A stretch of DNA of 64,000 nucleotides. It comes from an uncultured Gammaproteobacteria bacterium. Its GTDB lineage: Bacteria > Patescibacteriota > Microgenomatia > UBA10105 > UBA927. Below, piece by piece: positions 22,426-49,904 of this stretch; position 1 is the first letter of the stretch; each line of letters begins with the position of its first letter. The DNA lies in assembly GCA_964609895.1 (NCBI GenBank), contig CAZSTG010000004.1, positions 16,288-80,287 on the forward strand. The letters are read 5' to 3'. The notes under the pieces are model-generated. The model was not told where the DNA came from. It ran no database searches and worked only from the letters and a program-made list of their open reading frames with translations. Position numbers and translations under genes: made by a program.

Positions 22426-22430
22426 ACTTG

Positions 22431-26070: not shown

Positions 26071-27123
26071 CTATATCCTCAACTTCTTTGTCGGATGCGC
26101 GATTGCATGATACAACACACTTACGCAAAGCGTTGCAACAAAAGACAGGAGTAAACGAATGCCATATCCCAGATGAAAAGAAACGCCCACATGCTCCAAA
26201 AAAAACCGTATTATTGGCAGCTGAAACATAATAAATTCAAAACTAATGGCGCCAAGAAACAGAAAAATGTTTTTAGATAACAGCCAAGAAACTGAACCTC
26301 TGGCATAGGCAAAAAGCAACAGACATATACTCACGCTTGGCAGAAAAAACATGCTAAAACGGTATGCATCGGGAACATATTCCGCCAGAAAAATACTCAT
26401 TCCTAGAATACTTATGCTCTCCAGTTCTAGCACGGTTGCTATCCGGCGGGTAAAATGTTTCGTCATTGGATGAGATACAAAAAAAACGTATAACAGCATC
26501 CCTGTTACAAACTCGAATATTTTCGAAAATGGCGATATATATAAAAAATACGCCGCGTGACGCACACCAAAAAAATAGATGATGAAAAATTCTATCATCC
26601 AAAGCAATAAAATTGTTGACCATGAATGAAATCGATAGATGACCCGCAAGAGAAAGGGGAACGCTATCCAGCAAAAAATTAACGAGGATAAACTCCAAGC
26701 AACAGAATTAAAGGAATAGGCATATTGCAGTGAAGGAATATACGATTGCAGTAACAGCAGATTCGCTATCAACATGCTCCAAAATCGTTCTCCATATTCA
26801 TGAACAACAAAAGGAATGGTTATTCCCAACGTTAACAGGTGCAGGGGAAGAATTCGTTTCAGACGTTTGAGGCCATATGTTCCCCAATCAAACGTATGTG
26901 TTTGCAAACGCCACTGATAATTTGCCGTCAGTAAAAAACCGGAAAGAATAAAAAACGCGGTCGTCCCCGCATACCCATATGCAAGAAGCGGCATTTCTAG
27001 CAGATTAATAAAGGGGATCGCGCGAAATAACAGTGTATGATTTAAAAAAATAGCGATAGCTGCAAAAAAACGAATGGAAGTAAGCGGCAGTATACGATGA
27101 AAACTTTTTTCCAACACGCGCAT
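26071..27123 (-). CDS. acyltransferase family 3 (OafA/YrhL-like) integral membrane O-acyltransferase
   Basis: 350 aa with about 10 TM segments. N-terminal LTSIRFFAAIAIFLNH signature. Confidence 0.6.
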   Translation of the reverse strand: MRVLEKSFHRILPLTSIRFFAAIAIFLNHTLLFRAIPFINLLEMPLLAYGYAGTTAFFILSGFLLTANYQWRLQTHTFDWGTYGLKRLKRILPLHLLTLGITIPFVVHEYGERFWSMLIANLLLLQSYIPSLQYAYSFNSVAWSLSSLIFCWIAFPFLLRVIYRFHSWSTILLLWMIEFFIIYFFGVRHAAYFLYISPFSKIFEFVTGMLLYVFFVSHPMTKHFTRRIATVLELESISILGMSIFLAEYVPDAYRFSMFFLPSVSICLLLFAYARGSVSWLLSKNIFLFLGAISFEFIMFQLPIIRFFLEHVGVSFHLGYGIRLLLSFVATLCVSVLYHAIAHPTKKLRI

Positions 27124-27142: not shown

Positions 27143-27844
27143 TTAAGACACATGTTTCTCTTTCGATTCCGACACAACTTTTCCCTTCTCCAAATGAATG
27201 ATACGTTGAAATAAATATTTAAACTTTTCTATAGTGTGCGAGCTGGCAACCACTGTTATATCCTTTTGACGAATTAAGCGCTGCAATGTCCTTTTTGTTT
27301 TTCGTCTATAATTAGCATCACCCACGTTAATCATTTCATCAAGTATCAGAATATCGGGCTCTGAATGAATGGCTATTGCAAAACCTAGCCGTAACATCAT
27401 TCCGCTTGAATACGTAAACAACGGCACATCAATAAACCTTCCTATGTCGGCATATGTAATAATTGCTGCGAGTTTCTGATCTATCTCCTTCTTCGACATA
27501 CCAAGCAACATACCGTTAATATAGATATTTTGTAGGCCGGTTAGATCACTGTGAAATCCTGCTTCAAGTCCAATAAGCGATATTATTTTCCCTTCGGTGT
27601 AAACCCGACCACGGGTCGGTGTACAGATACCGGAAAGAATTTTTAAAAGGGTCGTTTTCCCTGATCCGTTGGGACCAACGAAACCGACGCTTTCACCCTT
27701 ATGAATAGTTAAATTAATGGTGTCGAGAGCGAGAAACCGTTCGTCTTTGCCATTAATAAGTTTTTCAACAAGAGTAGGTTTTTCATGATGGATAATATAC
27801 TCTTTGGATATATGATCCAGTTTAATAGCAACAGTATTTTTCAT
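27143..27844 (-). CDS. ABC transporter ATP-binding protein (Wzt/TagH/KpsT-like glycan exporter)
   Basis: Walker A GPNGSGKTTLLKILSG. ABC signature and Walker B ILILDE. Start trimmed to MKNTVAIKLDHISKEY at 27842-27844. Confidence 0.8.
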   Translation of the reverse strand: MKNTVAIKLDHISKEYIIHHEKPTLVEKLINGKDERFLALDTINLTIHKGESVGFVGPNGSGKTTLLKILSGICTPTRGRVYTEGKIISLIGLEAGFHSDLTGLQNIYINGMLLGMSKKEIDQKLAAIITYADIGRFIDVPLFTYSSGMMLRLGFAIAIHSEPDILILDEMINVGDANYRRKTKRTLQRLIRQKDITVVASSHTIEKFKYLFQRIIHLEKGKVVSESKEKHVS

Positions 27845-27848
27845 AGTA

Positions 27849-28616
27849 TTAAATCCAATCATCAAAATTTTTACTCTCTCTCCGAAAGATAAGAATGCCA
27901 AGTGCCGCTATCAAAACAATCAGAGCACTATTTATCTGAAGCATCCGAGAACTCGGAAAAGGCAGGTTTAAAAAACTGTGCTGCAATATAAGAACAATAG
28001 ACGTCATGGGATTAAAATTCCATAAAAAAAGTAATCGTTCTGGAATAACAGACAGGGTATACACAATGGGTGTCGCGTAGAACCACACGGTAAGGAGTGC
28101 TTGAGTAAAAAATGCGACATCACGATATTTTACATGAAGGGCACTTGTCAGAAGACTTAAGCCGGTAGTAAAAACCAACAATAGTATGAGTGCAAAAAAC
28201 AGACTCGGCAGCCTTGCAATAACCTCAAATCCGCCTACTGTTGCGATAATTCCCAATATAAAAAGCGCTAATAAAAAATTAAAAAAATCTGCTAAAATGA
28301 TGGACATCGGAATTACTTCTCTAGGAAAAGCTGCTTTTTTTACCAAAGACCGTTCGTGGACAATGCATTGAGTCGTCTTAGAAAGGGAAATATTAAAAAA
28401 CCCCCATGCCAATAATCCCGTAAACAAATAATAATACTGATTTTGTATTTGCTGCTTAAAAATAAACTGGAAAATAAACCCGATGACAAGCATCTGCAGC
28501 ACTGGATTAATCACCATCCATAAAAAACCAAAAGCTGTATGTTTATAACGTACACGCAATTCTTTATCCGTTAAAGTAAATAACAGTGATATAAAATACC
28601 GTAAGCGCTTCATCAT
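27849..28616 (-). CDS. ABC-2 type transporter permease (Wzm/TagG-like)
   Basis: 6 TM segments. Sits immediately upstream of the ATPase. Start trimmed to MMKRLRYF (track ORF extends to 28676). Confidence 0.7.
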   Translation of the reverse strand: MMKRLRYFISLLFTLTDKELRVRYKHTAFGFLWMVINPVLQMLVIGFIFQFIFKQQIQNQYYYLFTGLLAWGFFNISLSKTTQCIVHERSLVKKAAFPREVIPMSIILADFFNFLLALFILGIIATVGGFEVIARLPSLFFALILLLVFTTGLSLLTSALHVKYRDVAFFTQALLTVWFYATPIVYTLSVIPERLLFLWNFNPMTSIVLILQHSFLNLPFPSSRMLQINSALIVLIAALGILIFRRESKNFDDWI

Positions 28617-28658
28617 CAAGGGGATTATACTACATACTGTTCCTTTTTTGTCTATGGT

Positions 28659-29267
28659 ATGATAAGAAAAACGCATTCCAACAATGAATATATGACTGCT
28701 GTATCACCACACATTTCAGTCTATAAAAGACCTCCCAAACAGATACATGAACAAATTAAACAACTCGGTTATATTTGTTTTGCTAACAAAAAACTAAGTG
28801 AAGTAGAACAGAAAATAAATCAAGACCAGATAACGGCAGATAAACCAGAAAAAGTTATAGTTGCAGTGGAAAATGGCGCGCTTCTTGGAAGAATAAAAAT
28901 ATTCAAAAGAGCTTCAGTATTTGATAACACCCGTATCACTATTGGAGGAATAGGTGGAGTCTGTGTGGAACCACATGTGAGAAATCAGGGAATCGGTTCT
29001 CGTTTACTCCGCGCCGCTTTGGTGGAAATCAAAAAAAGTAATGTTGATATTGCTCTCCTTCTTGTTGATTCTAAGAACAAAAAGGCAATTTCACTGTATC
29101 AAAAATTTGGCTTCACCCTCTTACAAAATAACGTTCTCTACACGGGTAAATCAGGAACACTATATACACAAAAAGGTGCGATGATAGCACCAATACGATC
29201 CAATAACATATACTCCAAGATATGCACCGTAAAAATCCCTGTACATATCGGTTGTGGTAATTTTTAA
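28659..29267 (+). CDS. GNAT family N-acetyltransferase
   Basis: 202 aa. Acetyl-CoA-binding motif GGVCVEPHVRNQGIGSRLLRAAL. Confidence 0.7.
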   Translation: MIRKTHSNNEYMTAVSPHISVYKRPPKQIHEQIKQLGYICFANKKLSEVEQKINQDQITADKPEKVIVAVENGALLGRIKIFKRASVFDNTRITIGGIGGVCVEPHVRNQGIGSRLLRAALVEIKKSNVDIALLLVDSKNKKAISLYQKFGFTLLQNNVLYTGKSGTLYTQKGAMIAPIRSNNIYSKICTVKIPVHIGCGNF

Positions 29268-29317
29268 TTACTTGCTATACTACTAGCACTCTGCCACCAA
29301 CAAATACGCTGCTCCTT

Positions 29318-31227: not shown

Positions 31228-31232
31228 AGTAA

Positions 31233-31979
31233 TTGACAGTATTACATATGAAACACCAATATAGTAATTTTGTCATTCTTACGACACAAAGAACAGGTTC
31301 TACCTATATTGCGCATCTGTTGGATTCCCATCCGTCCGTCGTATCTTATGGCGAAATATTCCACCGGTTCGGCGTTGGTTGGGGAAGCAGGACACAGCGC
31401 ACAAACACGAGGTGGTTATTCTATATGCGCAACATCTTTCCCATCGTGTTTCTCAACACGCAGGTGTTTCATGCATATCCGTCAAACATTCGTGCTGTCG
31501 GTTTTAAACTGATGTACGGTCAAGCTACCCGTTTTCCGTCAGTTCTGCGGTACCTTGCAAATCAGCAAAGTACTATTATTTTTCTCAACCGCAAAAACCT
31601 ACTCGAGTCACTCGTATCACTCAAACGCGCGCAGTATTCCCGTATTTGGACTCTCAAATCAGCATCGGAAAAACCAGCAATCCACATATATATAGATGAA
31701 CAGGAGTGTCTCAATTATTTTATGGAGACGGATTGTCTTCATCGGCAATTCTGTGCGTATTTCAAAAAAAACCCTTCCATGCAGATATATTATGAGGACG
31801 TGTGTCAGAAAGGGACGCATGGACTTGATGCGGTGCAGCGTTTTTTGGCAATCCCCAGAAAACCGCTCTCTTCTCCAATTACAAAACTGAGAGGAGCTCC
31901 GCTAGAGGAAACGGTAGTAAATTACTTCGAGTTGAAAAAAAAGTTTTCCAAAACGAAATGGGCATCATTTTTTCCATGA
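31233..31979 (+). CDS. putative sulfotransferase (Stf0/Sulfotransfer_3-like PAPS-binding N-terminus)
   Basis: N-terminal motif NFVILTTQRTGSTYIAHLL resembles the 5'-PSB loop (x-R-[ST]-G-S-T) of Stf0-type carbohydrate sulfotransferases. About 245 aa. Confidence 0.45.
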   Translation: MTVLHMKHQYSNFVILTTQRTGSTYIAHLLDSHPSVVSYGEIFHRFGVGWGSRTQRTNTRWLFYMRNIFPIVFLNTQVFHAYPSNIRAVGFKLMYGQATRFPSVLRYLANQQSTIIFLNRKNLLESLVSLKRAQYSRIWTLKSASEKPAIHIYIDEQECLNYFMETDCLHRQFCAYFKKNPSMQIYYEDVCQKGTHGLDAVQRFLAIPRKPLSSPITKLRGAPLEETVVNYFELKKKFSKTKWASFFP

Positions 31980-33022
31980 AACGCATTTTATATATATCAT
32001 CGACAGACGAATCAGCTTCCATCCAAAATACGGAAAGAAGAAAGGCTTTGTTGCAGGAGCTCGGTTTTTCCGTCACTCTGTATACGTCAAAACAACAGGG
32101 TCTTTCGGAACTGCTGCAGTTGATTCCACACATACACACCTATACCATGCTCTATATACGTATTGACGGATCCTGTCGCCTTGACAAATTCAGCTTTCTC
32201 AAACTTATTCGTCCTTCACTCAGAATCGTTTGGGAAATTCATGGATTTCCGGAAGAAAATGATAGAAACAGCCACAGTGCACGTACTCATGGGCTCAGTG
32301 CGATCAAGAGACTGGTATATTCCGCATGTGCAAACGGGTATGTTTTTGTCTCTGAAGAGTTGCAGCAATATGCAAAGAAAAAAATACTTCGGCGTCCTCA
32401 AACCGTCATTCCAAATTTTATTCCGTCCGGTTTCAAACAATCCTTTAAACATACGCCGTCCAAAACCCTTAGGTCAAAAGGCACATCGCTTCGATATGTT
32501 TTATGGACCGGCAATGGAGCGTATCCGTGGCATGCGCTCGATATACTCGAACAGGTGGCAAAACTGTCTTACCGGCGCAATAAACATATTCGGTTTATAG
32601 TAATTTCCCCATATCTTTGGCATACGTTTTCCTGGTATCGGAATATCCTGTTTATCGCAGGGGCTCCCAATACCGTGGTACAGAAGTATATTGGGCAAAG
32701 TGATGTGTGTCTTGCGCTGTATCACAAACCGCCCGCATGCCCGTTTTATTTTTCTCCGTTGAAAATTCTCGACTATATGATCAACAAAAAACCTGTTATT
32801 GCAACAGGGTTAGGGCAAATAAACACAGTAATAGCCGATGGGATTAACGGGTATGTCACGGATAATGAGCCTGAAGACATCGTGGAAAAAATTCAGTATC
32901 TCATAACTCACCCTAAGGAAAGAACCGCGATGGGGGATAAGGGGTATGATACCATCACTTGCCAAAGGTCATATGCTAAGGCAAAAAAAGCGTATCAGGC
33001 ATTTTTTAATAAAATATGGTAA
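31958..33022 (+). CDS. glycosyltransferase family 4 (GT-B fold)
   Basis: C-terminal GT4 signature KKPVIATGLGQINTVIADGINGYV. Confidence 0.65.
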   Translation: MGIIFSMKRILYISSTDESASIQNTERRKALLQELGFSVTLYTSKQQGLSELLQLIPHIHTYTMLYIRIDGSCRLDKFSFLKLIRPSLRIVWEIHGFPEENDRNSHSARTHGLSAIKRLVYSACANGYVFVSEELQQYAKKKILRRPQTVIPNFIPSGFKQSFKHTPSKTLRSKGTSLRYVLWTGNGAYPWHALDILEQVAKLSYRRNKHIRFIVISPYLWHTFSWYRNILFIAGAPNTVVQKYIGQSDVCLALYHKPPACPFYFSPLKILDYMINKKPVIATGLGQINTVIADGINGYVTDNEPEDIVEKIQYLITHPKERTAMGDKGYDTITCQRSYAKAKKAYQAFFNKIW

Positions 33023-34236
33023 TAAACCAACAAAAAAAGGCCGTTGTTATCGTACTAGATGAATTTTTCACAAGCGGTATCACCACATTTATTTATTCCT
33101 ATTCCCAGTATCTTCTCTCAGCTGGGTTTGATGTGATTTTGATAGGCAAATCAAAAAATGAATCATGGATCACCCAAAAATTTCATGGGTGTACCCTGTA
33201 CACATTCTCCGAAACCAAACCAGCAAAATTACTCGGAGAAAAGCTGATAACCTATATTCAAAACGTTTTCTGGTACGCCAAGTTGTTTCGAAAAGTACGC
33301 CATAAACATTCCATTCTTGCAGTTCATTTTAATCAGGTGCTCTCAGCTTTTGGCATTCTGCTGTTTTCCCCTTCGGTCTATAGATATCAAAGAATATATA
33401 CGTTTCATGGAGACAGAGCGCAGGAACTCCAAAGTGAACAAGTGGAGCATCCTGTCCGCATACTACATATTGCCGTCATGCAACAGTTGCAGCGTTTTGT
33501 TTTACATCACTGCTCAGCTGTTGTTGCAGTAAGTCTGTATGGACTCAAAAGATTACGCGAGTTACGAACGCCAAATAGTAGATATATTCCTAATGGTATA
33601 TTTATGGATACAACTGGCGCGCGGGGAATAAAAAAAGAAAAAAAACTACAGCGTATGCAATACCATTGCATCAACATATCTCGATTCGAACCGCGAAAAG
33701 GACATATTCTCTTGCTACATGCTATGCGTCAGTTACTCCAAAAAAATATACCCATACAAACGACAATTGCCGGACCTGTTTCAAGTGAGTTATTACCGAT
33801 TCTATACGAATATGGACGGTTAAAATTAACCTCGCATATACGATTCTGTTATCAACCAGACACCGAGACGCAAGCGGCTCTCCTCCGGACGGCTGATCTC
33901 TTTATCATGCCGTCTGTCGCACTAGAAAACTGCCCCTTTACCATTATCGAGGCGCTTGCACACGGAATACCTGTTATCGGAACTCCTGTCGGAGGCATAC
34001 CGGAAATGCTTGAAAAAATCGACTCCCGCCTGATAGCCAAACAGGCTCGTCCGGAGGATCTGGCAAAAACAATTTTATGGTATCTGCGCCTGCCCGCATC
34101 ACAAAAACAGACCATACGGGCAACATGCCGAATCACGGCACAAACCTATTACAATGCTGCGATCAACTATAAAAAATATGTGCGGCTCTATCAGAAGGCA
34201 AAGCGCTCGAACTCCGCTGATAAAAATGTGCAATAA
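33016..34236 (+). CDS. glycosyltransferase family 4
   Basis: EALAHGIPVIGTPVGGIPEML (E-x7-E-like GT4 motif). Confidence 0.7.
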   Translation: MVINQQKKAVVIVLDEFFTSGITTFIYSYSQYLLSAGFDVILIGKSKNESWITQKFHGCTLYTFSETKPAKLLGEKLITYIQNVFWYAKLFRKVRHKHSILAVHFNQVLSAFGILLFSPSVYRYQRIYTFHGDRAQELQSEQVEHPVRILHIAVMQQLQRFVLHHCSAVVAVSLYGLKRLRELRTPNSRYIPNGIFMDTTGARGIKKEKKLQRMQYHCINISRFEPRKGHILLLHAMRQLLQKNIPIQTTIAGPVSSELLPILYEYGRLKLTSHIRFCYQPDTETQAALLRTADLFIMPSVALENCPFTIIEALAHGIPVIGTPVGGIPEMLEKIDSRLIAKQARPEDLAKTILWYLRLPASQKQTIRATCRITAQTYYNAAINYKKYVRLYQKAKRSNSADKNVQ

Positions 34237-39761: not shown

Positions 39762-40694
39762 ATGTGCACATATATGATTTCGATTCTTATTGCCACATAC
39801 CAAAGACCGCTACAGTTAAAAAGATGTTTGCTATCCATCAAAGCAACCGGATATACCACGTATGAGGTGCTCATTATAGATCAGAGCAAGGACGGTAGGA
39901 CAAAAAGTCTGATAACGCTGCTTAATGATCCGCGCTTGATCTATATACACGAACCGACAATAAACAAATCCGTCGCACTGAATACGGGAATACGGAAAGC
40001 TAAGGGAGATATCCTCGCATTTACTGATGACGATTGTATCGTCTCCAAACGCTGGCTTGCAACCATACAAAGAGATATGGATTCCCGTCAGCACATCGGC
40101 GGGGTCTTCGGTTCAACGCTTCCATATCATACATCCGCACATCACGGTTTATATTGTGTCAGCACATACACACACAAAAAAAACACCATTGTGTCCAAAC
40201 CGTGCAAGCATTCGGAACACATCGGATATGGAAACAATATGGCGTGGAGGAAAAACATGTGCGCCGCCATCAGATTTGAACCTTGGCTCGGTCCGAACAG
40301 TGTGGGACAAAATGCGGAAGATGCTGATTTCACCCTCCGTCAGCTTATTGCCGGAAACAAAATTTTTTGTGATCCTACCATGGTGGTTTGGCACGATCAT
40401 TGGGTAAACAGAAAACTCTATGAACTGCAAAGCGGCATCTATATCCATGGAGAAATGGCATGTTACGGAAATCTTGCTTTACAGGGATGGACATTTGCCA
40501 AAAAAGTTGTGTGTCAAAATGGTATGTCTTCCCTGCGGGAATTCAAGCGGTGCGTAAGGTATACGATAAGACAAAAAAAGACAACGGCAGATCTGTGGAG
40601 TGCTGCTGTACGCTTTTTCTTGGCTCGAGTGACGGGAATTACTGTTGGGACGATATATTTTTTGAAAAACAAATTCAGGCTATTTGATGTGTAA
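39762..40694 (+). CDS. glycosyltransferase family 2
   Basis: ISILIATYQRP...LIIDQSKDG... and DxD as FTDDDCIV. Confidence 0.7.
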   Translation: MCTYMISILIATYQRPLQLKRCLLSIKATGYTTYEVLIIDQSKDGRTKSLITLLNDPRLIYIHEPTINKSVALNTGIRKAKGDILAFTDDDCIVSKRWLATIQRDMDSRQHIGGVFGSTLPYHTSAHHGLYCVSTYTHKKNTIVSKPCKHSEHIGYGNNMAWRKNMCAAIRFEPWLGPNSVGQNAEDADFTLRQLIAGNKIFCDPTMVVWHDHWVNRKLYELQSGIYIHGEMACYGNLALQGWTFAKKVVCQNGMSSLREFKRCVRYTIRQKKTTADLWSAAVRFFLARVTGITVGTIYFLKNKFRLFDV

Positions 40695-41835
40695 GACGGG
40701 AAATTTTCCTTTCCCAGCTGTTTGCGATTGCTATATCCCTTTGTGCCCGCCTGTAAGAGGCGGGCCAAGGCTTTGACAGGATGTTCCGGATAAGAGATTC
40801 CCAGTCCTCCGGTTTTTTGCCGATCCGGATAAATTTGGAATACCGCCGCAATTCCTCAATCGGCGTCGCAAGAACAGGTTTGCCCATATAAAAATATTCC
40901 ATTACTTTCATGGGGAAACAATATAGATTAAACACGTCGGATACAGCATAGGGGATGATGCAGAGGTCAAAAGACGCAATCACAGAAGGTAACTTTTGTT
41001 TGGAGACAAAACCTTTCCAACACACATTGGCAAGAGAAAAAAATGTGTGTATGTCGTCGTCAAGTTCCCCATTGGTATCAAGCACATCTGATCGGCAAGA
41101 CCCATACAGTTGAAACGTGATGTCCGGCATGCGTTTGGCAACGGCTGTCAGCAGGCGGTAGTCAATCCTGCGGGTAATACCGCCAACAAACCCGACAATA
41201 TGACCCGCGTGGGATTTTTCCCGCGCCGGTGTAACCCGTTGAAACACCTCCTTGGCAAAACCCAACGGAACAAAACGTATATCTGGGCGATATTGACGAA
41301 ATTTCCGCACCAGCGTTCTTGAATTGGCAAACACGTATGTGACTGTCCGCAATAATGACTGGTCCTGCATGTTCAATTGTTTGGACACGCCCTGATAGTA
41401 ATCCACACAGTCGTACACAGACGTGAAATGTGAGAAGTATCCGATAATAGACGAAATATACAGGGGATCAAAAAACCAAAATATTTTTTTTCTGTACTTG
41501 TATTTTTTTTGCAGGAACCAGTGAAGAAACCAGGCATTAAGCCGGTAATTAAGCAGCTTTATGTTTCCAAATCGCTGACCAGGAATACAAAAAAACGGGT
41601 GAAACAACAACGCGTTTTGCTTTTTTTCGAAAAAACGGATGGGGGAGTTCGTATGGAAAATATCTTTCCACGAAATGGTATCTTCCGAACAAAAAACTAC
41701 AACAGTGTTGTGTCTGGATAGCACCCGCATGGTTTGTACCGCGTAATCACACCAGTACGCAAGCTTGTCGTTGAGTACCATCAGAATGAGGGCGTTTTGC
41801 AGCGTAGCCATAAGAAAACCAAACATATTATACAT
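40675..41835 (-). CDS. glycosyltransferase (GT-B, family 1/4-like)
   Basis: 386 aa. C-terminal nucleotide-sugar-binding half MEYFYMGKPVLATPIEEL. Confidence 0.55.
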   Translation of the reverse strand: MYNMFGFLMATLQNALILMVLNDKLAYWCDYAVQTMRVLSRHNTVVVFCSEDTISWKDIFHTNSPIRFFEKKQNALLFHPFFCIPGQRFGNIKLLNYRLNAWFLHWFLQKKYKYRKKIFWFFDPLYISSIIGYFSHFTSVYDCVDYYQGVSKQLNMQDQSLLRTVTYVFANSRTLVRKFRQYRPDIRFVPLGFAKEVFQRVTPAREKSHAGHIVGFVGGITRRIDYRLLTAVAKRMPDITFQLYGSCRSDVLDTNGELDDDIHTFFSLANVCWKGFVSKQKLPSVIASFDLCIIPYAVSDVFNLYCFPMKVMEYFYMGKPVLATPIEELRRYSKFIRIGKKPEDWESLIRNILSKPWPASYRRAQRDIAIANSWERKISRLTHQIA

Positions 41836-41896
41836 TTTTGTTGTTATAAAAAGAAAACATTGTTACAATAAAGGCCAACTTGTCCCGAAAATCACT

Positions 41897-42904
41897 ATGA
41901 ACAAAAAACTGCGGGTCGTCATCATTGGCTGCGGCTATTTCGGACAAAAACGCCTGCAGGCTTGTCTACACCTCAAAAATAAACTGCAGATTGTAGGTGT
42001 TGTTGACGCAGATAAAAAACGAGCCGCGGACACGGGTAAAGCATACCGCCTTCCGTTTGCCTTTTCCCTGTCTGAATTTTTCGGGTTCGCCACCGCCGAC
42101 ATTGCCATCATTGCAGTGCCAAACAATCAACATGCCGCGTTGGTTGTGGAGGCGCTCAAACACGGACTGCATGTGTTGTGTGAAAAACCGCTTGCTGTTT
42201 CCTCAAGCGAAGCGGGAAAAATTGTTGCTGCGGCAAAAACATATGGTCGGTTTGTAAAAACCGGATCAAACCACCGCTTCTTTCCAACAGTCAGAAAGGC
42301 ACACGACATTGTACAACAAGGAACTATCGGACGCGTGCTTTGTATAAAGGGGAATATCGGCACAAATGGATCCCACACAAAACAATCATGGTTCTGGAAT
42401 AAAAATCTGTCAGGAGGAGGAACATATATAGACAACGCGTGCCACCTGTTGGATATCACCAGATGGTTTATGGGTAATTTTTCTTCCTGCACAGGCATGA
42501 TTGGCAACGTCTACTGGAAAAAAGCGTCGGTCGAAGACTGTGCGGGCGGACTATATAAAACCAAAGATGGACGGCTGGCAATAATAACTTCTTCATGGAC
42601 ACAATGGACCGGCTATATGTCTCTGGAAATCTGGGGAGATAAAGGCTACATTCTTATTGATTCCAAACAGGGAGATTTTATTATCGTCGGAGACAAACTA
42701 TCACAGAAGAAAAGAGTGTTTGATTTTTCCAACAAGCCCCTTTCGTCCTACGAGGACGAACTGTCTTATTTCATATCCTGTGTCCGGAATAACGAAGAAC
42801 CGAGACCAAATGCAGAAGATGGAGCAGCGGTGATCCGCATGATTGAAGGTGTCTATGCTGCGGCAAAACAGAAAAAACAAATTCTATTGCTCAAACGATC
42901 ATGA
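41897..42904 (+). CDS. Gfo/Idh/MocA family NAD(P)-dependent sugar oxidoreductase (WbpB-like)
   Basis: Start at MNKKLRVVIIGCGYFGQKR (Rossmann GxGxxG). EKP motif LCEKPLAV. Confidence 0.75.
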   Translation: MNKKLRVVIIGCGYFGQKRLQACLHLKNKLQIVGVVDADKKRAADTGKAYRLPFAFSLSEFFGFATADIAIIAVPNNQHAALVVEALKHGLHVLCEKPLAVSSSEAGKIVAAAKTYGRFVKTGSNHRFFPTVRKAHDIVQQGTIGRVLCIKGNIGTNGSHTKQSWFWNKNLSGGGTYIDNACHLLDITRWFMGNFSSCTGMIGNVYWKKASVEDCAGGLYKTKDGRLAIITSSWTQWTGYMSLEIWGDKGYILIDSKQGDFIIVGDKLSQKKRVFDFSNKPLSSYEDELSYFISCVRNNEEPRPNAEDGAAVIRMIEGVYAAAKQKKQILLLKRS

Positions 42905-44007
42905 TTCCCGTCAATAAACCAAGAATGTATCCGGAAATGTATACCCTGACAAAAACGGCATTGGATTCAGGTTGGCTCAGCGCCGAGGGGCCAATGGTAA
43001 AAACATTTGAAAAAAACTTTTCCCGATATATCACTATGCGATTTGGCGCGGCAACAAATTCAGGTACGGCCGCATTGCATCTTGCATGTGCTGCACTTGG
43101 CATAGGAAAAGGCGATGAGGTGCTTGTGCCATCATTAACCATTGCCTCGTGTTATTTTGCTGTGTGGTACGTGGGGGCAACCGCTGTTCCCGTTGATGTA
43201 ACTCCCGATACATATACCATGGACCCCCGCCTTATTGAAAAAAACATCACAAAAAAAACGAAGGCAATTATGCCGGTGCATCTGTATGGCCATCCCGCTG
43301 ACATGGATCCGATTATGGAGGTAGCAAAAAAACATAATCTTTTTGTGATTGAAGATGCGGCGGAAGCGCACGGGGCCGAATATAAAGGAAAAAAAGTCGG
43401 TTCATTTGGCGATATTTCTATTTTCAGTTTTTATGCAAACAAATTGGTGACCTGTGGAGAAGGAGGGATGGTTCTGACAAATAATACAAGGATATATGAA
43501 CGTGTCGTGCGTTTAAAAAGTCTGTTTCATTCCAAAGAAACGCGGTTTGTCCATGATGCAATCGGCTATAACTACCATATGTCCAATCTGCAGGCCGCCG
43601 TCGGTCTTGCCAGTCTTTCCCACATTCAGGAATCCATCAAACAAAAACAGACAATGGCAAAATTGTACAACACTGGGCTTGAAAAAATTGCGGGGGTACT
43701 GACACCGGAAGAAAAACCATGGGCAAAAAATGTCTATTGGATGTATGCCATACGCATTCAAGGAAAAAAGTTCGGTATGTCCAGAAACGCGGTTGCTAAA
43801 AAACTGCTGCAACAGGGTATCCAAACGAGAACCTTTTTCTTTTCACCCCGCACCGCATTTAAAAAACTCGGCATGTACCAAACCAAACACTTTCCTGTCG
43901 CCGAACTGGTGGAGCGGGAGGGAATATATTTACCCTCGGGATTAGGTAATACAAAAAAAGACTTTTTGGAAACAATCGGGCAGATGCAGCGGTTACACAC
44001 GCAGTAA
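42901..44007 (+). CDS. DegT/DnrJ/EryC1/StrS family PLP-dependent sugar aminotransferase (WbpE-like)
   Basis: 368 aa. PLP-lysine segment SIFSFYANKLVTCGEGGMV. ATGA overlap with the oxidoreductase. Confidence 0.8.
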   Translation: MIPVNKPRMYPEMYTLTKTALDSGWLSAEGPMVKTFEKNFSRYITMRFGAATNSGTAALHLACAALGIGKGDEVLVPSLTIASCYFAVWYVGATAVPVDVTPDTYTMDPRLIEKNITKKTKAIMPVHLYGHPADMDPIMEVAKKHNLFVIEDAAEAHGAEYKGKKVGSFGDISIFSFYANKLVTCGEGGMVLTNNTRIYERVVRLKSLFHSKETRFVHDAIGYNYHMSNLQAAVGLASLSHIQESIKQKQTMAKLYNTGLEKIAGVLTPEEKPWAKNVYWMYAIRIQGKKFGMSRNAVAKKLLQQGIQTRTFFFSPRTAFKKLGMYQTKHFPVAELVEREGIYLPSGLGNTKKDFLETIGQMQRLHTQ

Positions 44008-44751
44008 CGAGCACACCTTCCGGACGGCTGATCGAACAATAAACCATAGTGTATATACTGCTATAACCACATACCGTTTGCCAAGACGTTGTGGCTCTTG
44101 CATAAAACGAAAAAACCACTCCAAACCGGATGCCCTCATCCATGCGGGCGCCTGTTTTTTTATACCGGAAATAAAATCAAAGGCAGCGCCGACACCAATA
44201 GATACATTGGCGTAAATATGTTGTTTTGCGAAAAACATCCACTGTTCTTGTTTTGGCGTGCTTAAACCGACAAACACAATCTGCGCTTTCGATGTATTCA
44301 CTAAGGTATATATTTTCTGAAGTTCCGCCTTGGAAAATGGGGCAAGGGGAGGAGCATAGACACCCGCGATAATAAGCTTCGGAAAAATTTTTTTCAGCTG
44401 AAATGAAAGGTGGGTAAGTGTTGCCTGAGTGGTGCCAAAGAGAAAGATTCTCATGTTGTTTTGTTCCGCCATTGCACACACTCGCAACATAAAATCGGGT
44501 CCGTATATTCGGGTAACATGCGGCCGCCCCATCAACTTCCCCATCCACACAAGCGGCATGCCGTCGCAAACGGTTGCGCTTGCCGTGTTCAGTATCCGTT
44601 GAAATGCGCTGTTGCGCTGAGCTTCAACCACGCCGTGCAGACTTGTAAGACATATATAGGTATGTCTATTGTGTTGCACCATTTTCCGTATCCGCTCGAC
44701 CAGCTTCCCGGACGGAGAATCAAAAAAACGGATACCAAGTGTAGTAAACAT
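43993..44751 (-). CDS. WecB/TagA/CpsF family glycosyltransferase (GT26; ManNAc/ManNAcA-type transferase acting on lipid-linked acceptor)
   Basis: 252 aa. MRIFLFGTT...VFVGLSTPKQEQWM signature. Confidence 0.75.
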   Translation of the reverse strand: MFTTLGIRFFDSPSGKLVERIRKMVQHNRHTYICLTSLHGVVEAQRNSAFQRILNTASATVCDGMPLVWMGKLMGRPHVTRIYGPDFMLRVCAMAEQNNMRIFLFGTTQATLTHLSFQLKKIFPKLIIAGVYAPPLAPFSKAELQKIYTLVNTSKAQIVFVGLSTPKQEQWMFFAKQHIYANVSIGVGAAFDFISGIKKQAPAWMRASGLEWFFRFMQEPQRLGKRYVVIAVYTLWFIVRSAVRKVCSLLRV

Positions 44752-44754
44752 ACA

Positions 44755-45705
44755 TCAGATAAAATATTGATATGGTTTCGTATATAATGGCCACCTTGCT
44801 TGAATAGAAATTCTTTTCCGTTTTATTACGCTCCACAAACGGATAACTTCTCTATATGCATGAAAAGAACTTCTCTCAAACACAATCGTATAGAGAAAAA
44901 TACCAATATCATAAAATATGATAGCCGGCGCATCCCGTAAAAAAAACGGTACCGCGTCGTTTTTTAATAACAACAGATATCTGTTGCGGAGACCAAGCAG
45001 TCTCAGCTGTGGGGAAACGTTCTTTCTTTGACCAGAACGGAAGGTTCGTATGTGCCACGCAACAGCACGCGGAACAAACAGGGAAATCCAACCCGCGCGC
45101 TGTGCCCTCCATGCAACATCCACATCCTCTTTGTGCATAAAAAAATCCTCATCAAATATTTCTTTCTCGATGGCGATATCTTCCAGCATTATTCTCCGAT
45201 AAAACGCGGCCGCTCCGTCGGGACCAAAAATACGACCACCTGCCAACGGGTGTATTTTTTCGCCTTCGTGACACAATCCCTGCCTTCTGTTTTTTCTCAT
45301 AAACAGCCCCGCTCCATCTATGGCAAACGGTTTTATGTCCATCCCATCTGTTCTTAGAAGCAACCCCGCCGCAGAACCGGCCTGCGGATTTTGATCAAGT
45401 GCCACCACCATGGTTTTCAAAAAATCCGGCTTCAGAAAAACATCAGGGTTCAAGGTAAGAACGTATGTGCTTTTTGTTAAACGCAGTGCTTGATTGTGAG
45501 CAGCCGCGTAACCGACGTTATGCTTGTTATGATGCACCACAACAAATGGAAATGATTTACAGATGGAAACAGTCTTGTCCGACGATGCGTTGTCAACAAT
45601 ATGAACAGAAAAATCCGTATATGTCTGTTGCGATAAACACAGAAGACACTTCTGTATGAGTTTTTCACTGTTATATGTGACAATATGAACAGAAACAGTT
45701 TTCAT
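44755..45705 (-). CDS. glycosyltransferase family 2
   Basis: VSVHIVTYNSEKLIQKCLLCLSQQTYTDFSVHIVDNASSD. Start trimmed to MKTVSV at 45703-45705. Confidence 0.7.
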   Translation of the reverse strand: MKTVSVHIVTYNSEKLIQKCLLCLSQQTYTDFSVHIVDNASSDKTVSICKSFPFVVVHHNKHNVGYAAAHNQALRLTKSTYVLTLNPDVFLKPDFLKTMVVALDQNPQAGSAAGLLLRTDGMDIKPFAIDGAGLFMRKNRRQGLCHEGEKIHPLAGGRIFGPDGAAAFYRRIMLEDIAIEKEIFDEDFFMHKEDVDVAWRAQRAGWISLFVPRAVAWHIRTFRSGQRKNVSPQLRLLGLRNRYLLLLKNDAVPFFLRDAPAIIFYDIGIFLYTIVFERSSFHAYREVIRLWSVIKRKRISIQARWPLYTKPYQYFI

Positions 45706-45721
45706 ATAAAAACATCTCCTG

Positions 45722-46744
45722 TTACTCCATGGCCGCAAGTATCGGCTTCATCCACCGAATATTGTAGTAAATAGGAGACGAATATCTCCTATACCGCGCG
45801 TTTCCCTGAATGGACGCTACCAGTGGCGATATTGCCTGCAAAAAACTGATGCGTGGTTTAAAATGCAGGACTTTTGCGGCTTTTTTAGTTGATACTTTAT
45901 AGGATCGGTCTGGTGTTGTGCACTGCATATATTGTTGTTTTACGGAAAAAGAAAGCTTTTTTCTAAAGAAGGAAACCACTCCGGCCGCCACTTCTTTTAC
46001 CTGATAATTGTTTTCCGCAATATTAAAAATTTCCCCCTGTATGGAAGAGGGAGGAGAACGTAATACCCGATAATACGCCTCCGCGACATCCTCAACTGCA
46101 ACAAGTGGACGCCATTGTAGCCCTCCATTATACACAACGATCTGCTTTTTTCGAAGCGCATCACTCACCATCGTATTAATAATAAGATCATACCTCATGC
46201 GGGGAGAGAAACCGTAGATTGTTCCCTTCCGCAGGATTGTCACAAAAAAACGGTTCGTGCACATTTTTAACAGCTCTTGTTCAGCTAAAAATTTGGATAG
46301 CGAATATGGATTTTTGGGAAAGACGGCGGCACTCTCGGATTGCGTCTTGTTATATTGTGGTTCCCTGTTATAGATGGAACAGCTGGAAGCAAAAATGAAG
46401 CGCCTGACTCCGGCGTGTTGTGCCATGCGTGCAACCGCGATTGTACCTTCTTTGTTTATCTGCATATTGGCAGTGGGATTAAACTCCGCTGTGGGATCGT
46501 TGGACAACGCAGCCAGATGAATAACTGCATGGACGTCGTCAAACAATCCACAAGGGGGGTTCCGGACGTCACCTTTCACAACCCGGATTTGTTTCAAAAC
46601 ACCCCGAAGAGACGCGCCGCCGAAATAAAACGAATCAAAAACTGTTATGTTATACCCACGCTGAAGGAGATAGGGAACTAAAACGGAACCGACATATCCC
46701 GCTCCTCCTGTAACAAGCACGTGCTGTTTTGTTGTTTTTTTCAT
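45722..46744 (-). CDS. NAD-dependent epimerase/dehydratase family protein (SDR, nucleotide-sugar modifying)
   Basis: VLVTGGAGYVGSVLVPYLL Rossmann motif. YxxxK catalytic dyad region. Confidence 0.7.
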   Translation of the reverse strand: MKKTTKQHVLVTGGAGYVGSVLVPYLLQRGYNITVFDSFYFGGASLRGVLKQIRVVKGDVRNPPCGLFDDVHAVIHLAALSNDPTAEFNPTANMQINKEGTIAVARMAQHAGVRRFIFASSCSIYNREPQYNKTQSESAAVFPKNPYSLSKFLAEQELLKMCTNRFFVTILRKGTIYGFSPRMRYDLIINTMVSDALRKKQIVVYNGGLQWRPLVAVEDVAEAYYRVLRSPPSSIQGEIFNIAENNYQVKEVAAGVVSFFRKKLSFSVKQQYMQCTTPDRSYKVSTKKAAKVLHFKPRISFLQAISPLVASIQGNARYRRYSSPIYYNIRWMKPILAAME

Positions 46745-46770
46745 AGAGAATTGTGCAGTGCAAGTATAAC

Positions 46771-47331
46771 TTATTCAAAAGCTGGATGCTCCAGATATGT
46801 CTTTAATGTCATTCCGTGTGTATCACGGGAAGACAAAAGCGGAGGAGTTGTTATTGGCCAGCGGACAGCAACCGCTGAATCATTCCAAAGGAGTGTGCCT
46901 TCCGCTGAAGGCGTATAATATCCCGTCTGTTTATATTGCATCTCGGCAAACGGCGAAAGCGTCAAAAAACCCAGCGCAAACCCAACAGGAACATACAGCA
47001 TTTTTTTGTTCCTTGCCGAAAGAACCGTCGCATACCATTTTCCAAATGTGGCAGATGAAACACGCAAATCCACCGCAACCTCAAATACTGAACCGAGTGT
47101 ACAGCGGACGAGTTTACCCATCGGGGCAGACATATCTTGATAATGTAAACCGCGAAGCACGCCTTTTTTAGATCTAGAATGACCCTCCTGAACAAACTCC
47201 TCGCAAAACCCAGCCTCCTGAAAAACTCTTTTATTCCACGGCTCAATAAAAAACCCGCGGGCGTCCTGAAAATATTCTATTTGAAAATTCAACAACCCTT
47301 GAAAATCGGTTGGTAAGATGGTTGTTTTCAT
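46771..47331 (-). CDS. rfbC: dTDP-4-dehydrorhamnose 3,5-epimerase
   Basis: 186 aa cupin. ...FQDARGFFIEPWN...GLHYQD... RmlC signature. Confidence 0.75.
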   Translation of the reverse strand: MKTTILPTDFQGLLNFQIEYFQDARGFFIEPWNKRVFQEAGFCEEFVQEGHSRSKKGVLRGLHYQDMSAPMGKLVRCTLGSVFEVAVDLRVSSATFGKWYATVLSARNKKMLYVPVGFALGFLTLSPFAEMQYKQTGYYTPSAEGTLLWNDSAVAVRWPITTPPLLSSRDTHGMTLKTYLEHPAFE

Positions 47332-47355
47332 TGTTGGATACTCCTAGTATATAAT

Positions 47356-48342
47356 TTGTCTAGAAGTTTTTACACATATATGATCGTTACCTGTATTATA
47401 TCAAGCGCCGGATATCCGAAAAATCTGCCCGTTCTTTCCAAATGCATCAGATCGCTTATTGTCGCAAAGACGAACAAAACAAAACTGCGGATTATTGTCA
47501 CCACAAACAATCATAAACATCTCATCGAAAAAAACAGACACATAGATCACATATGCGTCTCCCCAAAAAGCTCCGGGTTTGTGGGGATCAACAATGCTGC
47601 CGTCATAAACACGATGCGCAAAAAAAGCGATTATTATCTCATCATCAACGATGATGCGTGGGTTGACAGAAACTTTTTCCACAATTTAAACAAGACTGTT
47701 CAGATTCATCCTGAACACAAAGATATTGTTATTCCGTTCATATTTGATGGTTCCAGTACGGCTGTTGATTCCTTCGGCGTTGAATATTTTCGCACAGGCT
47801 ATCCAAAAAACGCCTCTATGGAAACCGTTCAAACCTCTCTAGCCTCTATGTCCTGTTTGTTACTAAAAACAGAATTCCTAAAAAAAATGATTTCCTCCTA
47901 TGGATATTTTCTGAATCCATTACTCACGTGGTATCTGGACGACGTTGAGTTTTCCGTTCGCGCGCTTGCACTAGGAGGAAATCTGTATAGGGACAAAACC
48001 ATCGTCGCACACCATCTTCGCACTTACACATGGGGGAGAAAAAGTTATGCTGTTATATACTACAGCTTTCGTAACCTTATTTGGGTAATACTGTTAACTT
48101 GGCCAAAACGGGTGATAATAAACAACTTGCCTCGTATTATCTGTTGGCAAATACTTACCTGTGTGTACTGTCTTCTCAAATATTCCCCGCTATTATACCC
48201 GAAAATAATTTGGGACACCTGTGTACATTGGCGCATGCTGATGAAGGAAAGAAAAAACATTCTCTCTAAATATAAAAAGATAAATGCGTTCAATGCTATG
48301 TTTTCTTCTCTTGAAATCCGTCATGATAGAGTCACGTTTTGA
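47356..48342 (+). CDS. glycosyltransferase family 2-like protein
   Basis: 328 aa. DxD-like YYLIINDDAWVD. Assignment is weaker than for the other GT2 genes. Confidence 0.45.
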   Translation: MSRSFYTYMIVTCIISSAGYPKNLPVLSKCIRSLIVAKTNKTKLRIIVTTNNHKHLIEKNRHIDHICVSPKSSGFVGINNAAVINTMRKKSDYYLIINDDAWVDRNFFHNLNKTVQIHPEHKDIVIPFIFDGSSTAVDSFGVEYFRTGYPKNASMETVQTSLASMSCLLLKTEFLKKMISSYGYFLNPLLTWYLDDVEFSVRALALGGNLYRDKTIVAHHLRTYTWGRKSYAVIYYSFRNLIWVILLTWPKRVIINNLPRIICWQILTCVYCLLKYSPLLYPKIIWDTCVHWRMLMKERKNILSKYKKINAFNAMFSSLEIRHDRVTF

Positions 48343-48452
48343 AGTGCTGTTCTGTTAATGACAGGTGAGGAAATATGCAAAAAACTGATCGGCCGGCGCC
48401 GACAGGTCTGTTCACAAATTTATAAATTGTTCAATCAATAAAACGGTGGTTC

Positions 48453-49904
48453 TTACAACCATGTAGTTATTGCCGCATAAAGAAAATAAACAAAAATAAA
48501 ATTATTTGGAGCGGTATTTTCAAACAGCCCAATAAGATAAAACATGACTAACGAGGTATAAAATGTCAACGAATAAATGATTTGTCGCTCACTCTTTTTT
48601 TTAATAGACTCACATAAAGCCGCCCTGACCCGTTTTAGTACTAAAAAATTAATGGTTATATATATAAAAATACCCAAAACACCGGTTTCAGCAAGCACGG
48701 TTAATAGATCGTTGTGAGATGAAACGGCTTCACGATCTATTTCCCTAACCTCGTTTTCTCCGAATTCGCCCGTCTTATCATAAAAATGAAGTCGAACGGG
48801 TCGCTCTACTTCATATTGATAATTCCCTGCTCCAATCCCGACAAGGGGAGAGGCTAAAAACGCCGATATTGCTTGTCCATATAAAAACGTTCTGCCGAGA
48901 GTATAAGATACATCCCTCTCTTTCTCCTTCAGCAAAAAACGGTCAATGAGGCTATATCGAAATACAAGAGAGGCAAGAATAAGAGCTCCCGCTGCAGCCA
49001 CGCCAATCGGTATTAAAATTTTTCTCAAGGTGTTAACAGAGAGCAGTTTTGTGTGTAGCAAAACGCCTGTGTAGAAAATCGAGCCAAGCAAGAAACATAA
49101 TGTTAACCAACGAAAATTTGAGATAATAAAGGAAAAGGGAATTAAAAATATTCCTGACAGAACATATATAAGATGCAGGAGTTTATGACTTTTTTTTAAA
49201 AACACTGCGGAGCCGATAAAAAATGCGTAGCTGACAACGATATCTCCCCACTGCGGGCCTCTTCCTCTGCTCAAATCCTGAGCAATACTATATGCGGCGT
49301 CCCCAAACAAAAACTTCTTCGCAAAAAGAATGGCTTGGTCTCGAAACGCCACCTGAAACAGACTAATGGCGGAAATTCCAAGAGTTGTTAAACCAATCAC
49401 ATATATGGCTCTTTTCTGTTCCTTGTCAGAAAACCTCATCAGACGGATTATAAAAAAGTGCACCGTCGCAACCAATAATAATCGGAAGCTGGTTAAGTCA
49501 AAAATGTAAGGATTTTTTAGTAAAGAAAGCGCATTGACAATAATATATCCCACCACAAGCCAATCAATTAGGCGTATCTTTTTTTGCATATGAAGCTGTT
49601 TTTTTGCCGCAAGAAAAATAAAAAGTATCAGCTCGCACACCGCGACACCCGTTGAGAGTCCAATGCTGGTTTTTGGACGAAGGGGAAGCGGAGACGAAAA
49701 AACAACAACAATTCCCAAAATGTTTTGCACAGAGATAAAAAAAAGTAAATATTCTCTTTGAATTACTGTGTCCCAAATCCGCTGAATTGTTTTAAATAGC
49801 ACCATATGACACCACCGGCGTCTGTTAGTATACCCGAACACATCCTTTTTCAAAAGCTGTTGGTCTGTGATATAAATAACAGGACACATGACAACAAAAG
49901 GCAA
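48453..49904 (-). CDS. O-antigen ligase/Wzy-like polytopic membrane protein (second copy)
   Basis: 483 aa with about 11 TM segments. Wzy_C signature ...VGIGAGNYQYE... and SHNDLLTVLAETGVLG. Start uncertain (an alternative internal ATG exists). Confidence 0.6.
   Translation of the reverse strand: MPFVVMCPVIYITDQQLLKKDVFGYTNRRRWCHMVLFKTIQRIWDTVIQREYLLFFISVQNILGIVVVFSSPLPLRPKTSIGLSTGVAVCELILFIFLAAKKQLHMQKKIRLIDWLVVGYIIVNALSLLKNPYIFDLTSFRLLLVATVHFFIIRLMRFSDKEQKRAIYVIGLTTLGISAISLFQVAFRDQAILFAKKFLFGDAAYSIAQDLSRGRGPQWGDIVVSYAFFIGSAVFLKKSHKLLHLIYVLSGIFLIPFSFIISNFRWLTLCFLLGSIFYTGVLLHTKLLSVNTLRKILIPIGVAAAGALILASLVFRYSLIDRFLLKEKERDVSYTLGRTFLYGQAISAFLASPLVGIGAGNYQYEVERPVRLHFYDKTGEFGENEVREIDREAVSSHNDLLTVLAETGVLGIFIYITINFLVLKRVRAALCESIKKKSERQIIYSLTFYTSLVMFYLIGLFENTAPNNFIFVYFLYAAITTWL

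Follow-up and report, generated by a model that had tools for sequence, protein, structure and literature searches.

Rhizobial NodH, LpsS and KpsS are O-sulfotransferases that use PAPS to modify envelope glycans or glycolipids, and dedicated PAPS genes of the nodPQ type often accompany them. The three enzymes, which act on Nod factor, LPS and K-antigen, belong to the same Sulfotransfer_3 class with an 'RXG' 5'-phosphosulfate-binding (PSB) motif (PMC11625862). Hallmarks of polysaccharide sulfotransferases are a lysine or arginine in the PSB loop, a serine in the 3'-phosphate-binding (PB) helix and a glutamate or histidine as base; the PSB residue is an arginine in Stf0 and lies within the 'RXG' motif in NodH (PMC11625862). 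A further enzyme, Stam10 (PDB entry 9VKI), is 84% identical to Sam10, the fucose-2-O sulfotransferase of saccharomicin A biosynthesis, which acts late on a long oligosaccharide (at minimum a heptasaccharide) and has an APS kinase encoded in its cluster (PMC13291958). In Stam10, alanine substitution of S17, E34, H37, Q87 or H155 abolishes activity, the essential E34 contacts the acceptor O2 hydroxyl, and R108 and S117 hold the 3'-phosphate of docked PAPS (PMC13291958). At the level of gene clusters, reports on cyanobacterial and marine Gram-negative loci (synechan, and the CPS of Cobetia and Vibrio) describe clusters in which genes for glycosyltransferases (GTs) and PAPS-dependent sulfotransferases occur together with an exporter gene (PMC13125312, PMC11766843, PMC11641403); these are different lineages, and the comparison with the locus described below covers gene-cluster composition.

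We analyzed a 64-kb stretch of DNA from a Microgenomates (CPR) bacterium (the window) that contains a gene of this enzyme class. To our knowledge, CPR cell envelopes have hardly been studied by experiment, and there are no biochemical or chemical data for any CPR glycan, even though these envelopes mediate attachment to host cells. Judged from its sequence, the gene encodes an intact carbohydrate sulfotransferase of the NodH/Stf0/Sam10 clade, orthologous neither to Stf0 nor to the nodulation enzymes. The gene and its functional elements are as follows.

31248..31979, + strand, sulfotransferase gene, 243 aa, NodH/Stf0/Sam10 type, Sulfotransfer_3
31281..31304, + strand, PSB loop TTQRTGST, aligned with ARSGSS of Stam10 and QRSGST of Stf0
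31353..31364, + strand, E36-I-F-H39, with E36 corresponding to E34 and H39 to H37 of Stam10
31500..31523, + strand, strand/turn GFKLMYGQ, with Q92 corresponding to the essential Q87 of Stam10
31590..31619, + strand, 3'-phosphate-binding strand-turn-helix RKNLLESLVS (R115...S124), corresponding to R108/S117 of Stam10

The initial annotation had placed the gene at 31233-31979. The plus-strand open frame does have this extent and would encode 248 aa from a TTG start, but the start codon was not upheld. An exact look-up of recorded proteins found no entry for the 248-aa product, and the ATG at 31248 is the start both in the public gene call (P0001) and in the orthologs P0002 and P0003 (243 aa, MKHQYSNF...). 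We therefore rejected the TTG in favor of the ATG model, and the five extra codons are probably not translated. The stop of the preceding ORF ends at 31227, which agrees with the close spacing noted earlier, although the exact figure of 6 bp has to be replaced by 5 nt for the TTG and 20 nt for the ATG.

Family models point to a sulfotransferase. The earlier description as Stf0-like, to be checked by HMM searches, was borne out as regards the enzyme class, with matches slightly under the Pfam gathering cutoffs. Sulfotransfer_3 (PF13469) scored 26.2 bits (gathering cutoff 27, E=1.1e-5), slightly too low but with a match from residue 14 to 208 of the protein and from 3 to 213 of the 216 model positions. 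Stf0 (PF09037) scored 21.5 bits (cutoff 22) over residues 113-145 only (33 residues), and Sulfotransfer_1 reached 16.7 bits (cutoff 22). Precomputed PF13469 matches are on record for P0001-P0014 and P0016, the one for P0001 being flagged 'faint'. The protein failed the trehalose-sulfotransferase equivalog NF047724 (17.2 bits, cutoff 400) and the NoeE model (11.1 bits, cutoff 500). Stf0 as the nearest relative was not sustained, since the closest characterised enzymes are Sam10/Stam10, of NodH type. In a comparison of the single sequence with solved structures, the only significant match was 9VKI, deposited as 'LPS sulfotransferase NodH' (E=3.6e-8). A profile of 16 homologs (A1) matched 9VKI (2.3e-21) and Stf0 (1TEX, 1.9e-12) over the full length, and all remaining significant PDB matches were PAPS-dependent as well (the CurM and OLS ST domains, TPST, SULTs, NDST, StaL and Teg). 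With A1 as input, AlphaFold gave a confident model (pLDDT 89.3, pTM 0.87) that has the alpha/beta fold of PAPS-dependent sulfotransferases, with a central parallel beta-sheet and flanking helices, and PAP/PAPS sulfotransferases alone fill the first 45 places of a Foldseek search with it. The likeness to sulfotransferases thus far exceeds chance. A word-indexed search (16 matches) underestimated the size of the family, which the exhaustive profile search showed to be large and common (22,847 representative clusters at E<=1e-3, 2,523 at E<=1e-30). The enzyme type is ordinary and well known, and orthologs have already been annotated automatically, at NCBI as 'sulfotransferase' (Microgenomates group bacterium, Patescibacteria group bacterium, Candidatus Gottesmanbacteria bacterium) and at JGI as 'LPS sulfotransferase NodH'.

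The residues that matter in Stam10 are largely retained. The protein contains the motif TTQRTGSTYIAHLL, and the resemblance of its N-terminal loop to a PSB loop, pointed out from the start, is confirmed by the alignments listed above: R15-x-G17-S18-T19 aligns with R13, G15, S16 and S17 of Stam10, so that the catalytic lysine or arginine followed by G-S/T is present, and S18 is conserved in at least 90% of the 16 homologs. In the single-sequence alignment with 9VKI (chain index minus 20 gives native Stam10 numbering), R13, S16, S17, E34, H37, Q87, R108 and S117 correspond to R15, S18, T19, E36, H39, Q92, R115 and S124, respectively. By this count, seven of eight PAPS-binding or essential Stam10 residues are conserved (R15, S18/T19, E36, H39, Q92, R115, S124), and H155 of Stam10 falls outside the aligned region. 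R15, G17, E36, R115 and S124 are invariant in 16/16 homologs, and within the family the same holds for G85, F86, K87, M89 and Y90. A 3'-phosphate motif further towards the C-terminus, which the initial annotation had proposed to look for, was found in R115 and S124 (the arginine and helix serine). The alignment also makes E36 a candidate general base facing the acceptor. Taken together, the likeness to Stam10/Sam10 comprises the best sequence match, the PSB sequence R-x-G-S-S/T, EIFH with the essential Glu and His, the Q in GFKxxxxQ, the R...S(+9) 3'-PB pair and a single-domain soluble protein of ~245 aa, although the identity is only ~25-30%.

The protein has no transmembrane segment (maximum Kyte-Doolittle value 0.98 over 19 aa, pI 9.8) and should therefore act in the cytoplasm. 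The gene is under purifying selection and shows no sign of decay. The ortholog in the closest relative, the 'Microgenomates group bacterium' MAG GCA_049287205.1 (L002; JBAQFJ010000001.1, a single contig of 1,020,031 bp), has equal length and no indels, with dN=0.25 and a saturated dS of ~2.1 (dN/dS 0.115). This ratio falls within the range of fourteen neighbouring genes (0.04-0.19). The region from 23 to 42 kb of the window is fully syntenic in this relative (64-94% amino acid identity), and the sulfotransferase, at 64%, is the least conserved member of its gene block, tied with one GT2. This relationship places the organism in the CPR/Patescibacteria, in line with the initial annotation.

The surrounding genes are mostly those of a glycan locus, in keeping with the placement in the initial annotation, which can be extended from the GTs to a Wzm/Wzt exporter and an initiating enzyme.

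26071..27123, - strand, Acyl_transf_3 membrane acyltransferase, glycan O-acylation type
27143..27901, - strand, Wzt/TagH-like ABC ATPase, nucleotide-binding domain only
27849..28676, - strand, Wzm/ABC2 permease
28659..29267, + strand, GNAT acetyltransferase, first gene of the plus-strand block
29318 or 29492 to 30289, and 30286-31227, + strand, two tandem paralogs with DxD-like LDADIVFF/LDSDVLFF
31958..33022, + strand, GT4-like glycosyltransferase, 354 aa, overlapping the end of the sulfotransferase gene by 22 nt
33016..34236, + strand, GT4 glycosyltransferase, 406 aa
37147..38268, + strand, GT4 glycosyltransferase, 373 aa
39058..39648, - strand, polyprenyl-phosphate glycosylphosphotransferase (Bac_transf), initiating enzyme
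39762..40694, + strand, GT2
40675..41835, - strand, TuaH-like Glyco_trans_1_4
41765..51093, remaining glycan region: GFO_IDH_MocA oxidoreductase, DegT aminotransferase, WecG/TagA-family GT, GT2, NAD-epimerase/dehydratase, RmlC-like epimerase, a GT-A-like ORF (47356-48342), a Wzy_C protein and a GT4

On the plus strand, the GNAT gene, the two paralogs, the sulfotransferase, the GT4-like gene and the GT4 gene form an operon-like block (overlaps of 4, 22 and 7 nt). When 26-42 kb was scanned for promoters and terminators, the counts stayed at the level of shuffled sequence (40 versus 39.1, and 18 versus 14.4). The upstream ORFs are true paralogs, as first described (31-32% identical to each other), and the GT4-like and GT4 genes downstream are the two GT4 genes that the same description had reported. 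Neither paralog matched a Pfam, NCBIfam or PDB profile, and an AF2 model made from the two sequences reached a pLDDT of 33; both are conserved in the closest relative, and one homolog occurs in another CPR locus (L014, see below). The block is followed by FtsH, a 5'-3' exonuclease, a GT4 and PyrH, and then by glycan genes up to ~51 kb, so that the housekeeping genes FtsH, exonuclease and PyrH interrupt the glycan locus. The AA_kinase gene at 38272-39057 was rejected as a sulfate-related kinase, because it is the archaeal-type UMP kinase PyrH (169 bits, cutoff 158). Other genes in the window include dnaA/dnaN, those for tRNA synthetases and T4SS-like ones.

The Wzm/Wzt pair is the glycan exporter of the locus; its best NCBIfam matches (galactan export Wzt, TagH) are all well under the curated cutoffs. 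With permease, ATPase, Bac_transf, WecG/TagA, GT4 and GT2 all present, the locus has the make-up of an ABC-transporter-dependent (Wzm/Wzt, TagGH-like) pathway. We also considered sulfate as an export-coupled chain terminator read by Wzt; this role is not supported, as the Wzt protein has ~250 aa and is without a C-terminal carbohydrate-binding module.

The setting differs from that of the characterised enzymes. The substrate of Sam10 is an actinomycete secondary metabolite, a heptadecaglycoside, whereas the window gene lies in a CPR surface-glycan locus with Wzm/Wzt. Stf0, the mycobacterial trehalose 2-sulfotransferase, is related, but the window lacks the sulfolipid context (pks2/papA/mmpL8). 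No nod genes were found in the window, in contrast to NodH and NoeE, so that 'NodH' is only a generic JGI and PDB label here. Unlike rhizobia, the host is presumably a monoderm-type CPR cell without LPS.

Five more CPR-type loci contain members of the sulfotransferase sub-family, with 34-41% identity and the invariant residues retained. In all five, a gene for PAPS synthesis lies 1-8 kb from the sulfotransferase gene.

L005, a Logan contig: ~320-aa NMNAT-like plus APS kinase fusion, between wzm and wzt (e.g. L005:1262-2227)
L013, 'Patescibacteria group bacterium', 1.23-Mb contig: ~320-aa NMNAT-like plus APS kinase fusion, between wzm and wzt
L014, 1.09-Mb contig: ~320-aa NMNAT-like plus APS kinase fusion, beside wzm/wzt and adjoining an NMT1/ABC importer
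L015, Candidatus Gottesmanbacteria GCA_016218205.1: 574-aa PUA_2 + ATP-sulfurylase + APS_kinase protein, ~1.2 kb from the sulfotransferase
L016, GCA_040960625.1: same 574-aa enzyme type as in L015, ~1 kb from the sulfotransferase

The APS kinase domain of the fusion is clearly recognizable (PF01583, E=2.4e-43; TIGR00455, 167.8 bits, cutoff 138.7). As a side possibility, this NMNAT-like adenylyltransferase-APS kinase fusion of ~320 aa may be a new minimal PAPS synthase. The kinase-bearing loci resemble the window in other genes, too (52-57% identity for Wzm/Wzt, 50-60% for Bac_transf, 34-39% for the 354-aa GT), and the 354-aa GT is a recurrent neighbour of the sulfotransferase (L002, L005, L013). 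They represent one type of cassette, which may or may not include the kinase: Wzm and Wzt are directly adjacent in the window, and it is between or beside them that the fusion is found in related loci. Four additional loci carry the fusion (L009-L012); no A1-type sulfotransferase was found in them within 8 kb, and L009 alone has a borderline Sulfotransfer_2 ORF (21.8 bits versus 22). Altogether, the sulfotransferase is linked to PAPS synthesis in 5/7 loci examined, the window and its closest relative being the exceptions, and this linkage speaks strongly, if indirectly, for PAPS-dependent sulfation of glycans in CPR bacteria. The initial annotation had argued that such small genomes often lack PAPS genes; this did not hold for the related CPR-type loci, all five of which encode either an APS kinase or a complete PAPS synthase.

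We consider it likely that the gene product is a soluble cytoplasmic PAPS-dependent O-sulfotransferase which acts on an exported polyprenyl-linked glycan to give a sulfated anionic surface or wall polymer. In this scheme, the glycan would be started by Bac_transf and built by the adjacent GT4 and GT2 enzymes on the cytoplasmic face of the membrane. By homology, R15, S18 and T19 of the PSB loop would hold the 5'-phosphosulfate of PAPS, and R115 and S124 its 3'-phosphate. E36 would deprotonate a sugar hydroxyl for in-line attack on the sulfur, with release of PAP. Sulfation of the glycan hydroxyl would take place on the cytoplasmic face, before the neighbouring Wzm/Wzt exports the polymer, and would leave the Microgenomates cell with a sulfated, anionic polymer on its surface or in its wall. 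We infer the glycan acceptor from the gene neighbourhood; in support, the nearest characterised enzyme acts late on a long oligosaccharide and has an APS kinase in its own cluster (PMC13291958). The analysis as a whole favors an exported glycan that carries sulfate, with donor, acceptor, timing before export and sulfated product each predicted.

A different type of enzyme is extremely unlikely. A divergent P-loop nucleotide kinase or another NTP-binding enzyme of the same fold should have a Walker-A motif GxxxxGK[ST], which is missing; the loop is QRTGST instead, the type known from Stf0 and NodH. Every significant sequence match is a sulfotransferase, the protein retains the Arg/Ser pair of the 3'-PB site and the Glu on the acceptor side, and sulfotransferases outrank kinases by 3 Z units. 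The nature of the acceptor leaves more room for debate. A sulfotransferase that modifies a small glycolipid, a disaccharide or a diffusible oligosaccharide, and not an exported polymer, is unlikely, but would fit the characterised close relatives, all of which use oligosaccharides or glycolipids and not long polymers (PMC11625862): trehalose for Stf0, a lipochitooligosaccharide for NodH and a secondary-metabolite oligosaccharide for Sam10. The acceptor-binding part of the fold is conserved with no solved structure (13-17% identity), which is also compatible with a small acceptor. Against this, the gene overlaps a GT gene and is kept beside GTs, Wzm/Wzt and the initiating phosphotransferase in at least six CPR loci, and no nod, trehalose, polyketide or PapA-type acyltransferase context was found in the window. 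Moreover, a lipid-linked oligosaccharide intermediate would itself be an 'oligosaccharide' acceptor, so that the two readings partly converge.

The supply of PAPS is a separate matter. ATP sulfurylase (PF01747), APS kinase (PF01583), PAPS reductase and CysQ domains were not found in the 64-kb window, which means that a complete system of ATP sulfurylase and APS kinase was not found within it. Likewise, tblastn with both types of CPR PAPS synthase yielded nothing at E<=1, either for the window or for the syntenic 20.7 kb of the relative. A tblastn match of the fusion at 47935-48306 of the window (E=0.39) was dismissed as chance, as the underlying ORF is GT-A-like (weak MGAT4 and NTP_transferase matches, 'INDDAW') and has no kinase motifs. 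Among the best 120 kinase-fusion homologs, which reach down to E ~6e-37 and could leave a canonical cysC or sat-cysC outside, none is located on the 1,020,031-bp contig of the relative or on the source contig of 110,729 bp, so that the close relative probably lacks the fusion type. The Sam10 cluster has a dedicated APS kinase, and so do the related CPR cassettes. With a kinase adjacent in 5/7 related loci, the absence of a linked kinase in the window is conspicuous. The enzyme could then be intact in an organism unable to make PAPS, either idle or dependent on PAPS or APS scavenged from a host or partner; APS does serve Sam10 as a poorer donor (PMC13291958). We regard this as highly unlikely. 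An idle gene is difficult to reconcile with the dN/dS of 0.115 and with orthologs that differ by 31-36% and yet retain every examined PAPS-binding or catalytic residue (three of three). A canonical cysC or sat may lie elsewhere, as the window represents 64 of ~1000 kb. We know of no bacterial PAPS importer. According to MAG surveys, some CPR genomes encode PAPSS and sat (PMC12114108, PMC12153355). The combined case, in which Microgenomates and other CPR bacteria place sulfate on an ABC-exported polymer and the lineage of the window, having lost or never possessed sulfate activation of its own, is fed PAPS or APS by a host or partner, is similarly doubtful, if slightly less so.

Full-text searches of the literature on CPR/Patescibacteria with sulfotransferases, sulfated glycans or PAPS genes gave nothing relevant to sulfation beyond these two MAG gene surveys. 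Sulfated CPR envelope glycans and the kinase cassette thus appear undescribed in the literature searched, even though both follow directly from standard annotation.

Two points are worth following, a sulfation cassette that recurs among CPR bacteria and the donor pathway that is missing in the lineage of the window. For the latter, PAPS genes elsewhere in the genome would be the ordinary outcome and external supply the interesting one: PAPS or APS from a host or partner would, if true, be a previously undescribed metabolic dependency. As for the former, a cassette conserved in several CPR lineages and composed of a sulfotransferase, GTs, Wzm/Wzt and usually a PAPS-making enzyme predicts sulfated CPR surface glycans. 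If this is true, the anionic sulfated polymer would fill the role that teichoic and teichuronic acids have elsewhere, and a sulfated envelope would affect surface charge, recognition by phages and hosts, and sulfur budgeting in very small genomes.

Some glycan loci of CPR bacteria encode a fusion protein of about 320 amino acids in which an NMNAT-like HxGH adenylyltransferase domain is joined to a genuine APS kinase; its gene usually lies between or beside wzm and wzt (the permease and ATPase of the ABC glycan exporter). The NMNAT-like domain contains the motifs GRWSPFHKGH...ISATNIR, and its top PDB match is MJ0541/archaeal NMNAT. The fusion is represented by more than 70 clusters at >50% identity, several of them from contigs of about 1 Mb. 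Should the N-terminal domain adenylylate sulfate, the fusion may act as a minimal PAPS synthase. In L015, from a Candidatus Gottesmanbacteria MAG, and L016, from a second MAG, a sulfotransferase gene of the window's sub-family lies 1-1.2 kb from the gene for a canonical, complete PAPS synthase of 574 amino acids (PUA_2, ATP-sulfurylase and APS-kinase domains). There are therefore two distinct solutions for PAPS supply among CPR glycan loci, the kinase fusion and the complete enzyme.

L005, 1262-2227: APS-kinase fusion
L009, 8001-9002: APS-kinase fusion
L011, 8001-8969: APS-kinase fusion
L013, 10001-10963: APS-kinase fusion
L014, 10001-10960: APS-kinase fusion
L015, 9115-10839: canonical PAPS synthase
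L016, 11731-13455: canonical PAPS synthase

Directly upstream of the fusion, an NMT1-type binding protein, an ABC ATPase and a BPD_transp_1 permease are encoded (L014, 7449-9955; L005, 1-422). This set is an importer of the nitrate/sulfonate/taurine type, and may provide dedicated sulfate or sulfonate uptake for the cassette. Immediately upstream of the L016 sulfotransferase, region 6972-10001 encodes a protein of the sulfatase family and a radical-SAM enzyme with a B12-binding domain. This is a hint that sulfate on the same glycan is turned over, or that the glycan is modified further.

Two tandem paralogs with 31-32% mutual identity precede the sulfotransferase in the window.

29318-30289: tandem paralog 1
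30286-31227: tandem paralog 2

Neither was matched in Pfam, NCBIfam or PDB-profile searches, and the AF2 model was not usable (pLDDT only 33). Both contain DxD-like motifs (ILDADIVFF / LLDSDVLFF), their counterparts in L002, the syntenic locus of a Microgenomates relative, are 84-88% conserved, and a 30% homolog is encoded in L014 (14676-15614). The paralogs may represent an unclassified GT-A-like family linked to the sulfation cassette.

We compared dS between the genes of window 26071-41835 and L002. Values were low (0.44-0.71) for Wzt, Wzm, GNAT, both tandem paralogs and the 406-aa GT4, and high (1.6-2.3) for FtsH, the exonuclease, the sulfotransferase, the 354-aa GT, GT2 and the TuaH-like GT. 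This mosaic suggests that part of the locus was recently exchanged between the two lineages.

Three MAG contigs (L010, L011 and L012; TPA assemblies) are named 'uncultured Gammaproteobacteria' or 'Pseudomonadales'. All three encode the CPR-type kinase fusion together with Wzm/Wzt and Bac_transf proteins that share 50-58% identity with the window's, and their taxonomic labels look doubtful.

The remaining window genes include the following.

538-2259: ATP-dependent DNA ligase
2272-3393: Fic protein
10122-10595: RNase H/RVT_3 protein
21102-21962: tyrosine recombinase, adjoining tRNA genes
22430-23209: two tRNA-Met and one tRNA-Trp
55739-57919: M23-peptidase-domain protein, adjoining the T4SS-like genes
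57941-61837: T4SS-like genes (TraG P-loop ATPase, PrgI-family protein)

The housekeeping genes for FtsH, a 5'-3' exonuclease and PyrH, an archaeal-type UMP kinase (TIGR02076, 169 bits versus a cutoff of 158), lie among glycosyltransferases (34315-39057), an order also kept in L002. Regions 7632-10144 and 48453-49904 between them encode a Polysacc_synt flippase and two proteins of the Wzy_C type, which resemble O-antigen ligases/polymerases. Because these share the window with Wzm/Wzt, a Wzx/Wzy-type pathway may run beside the ABC-type one in the same cell.
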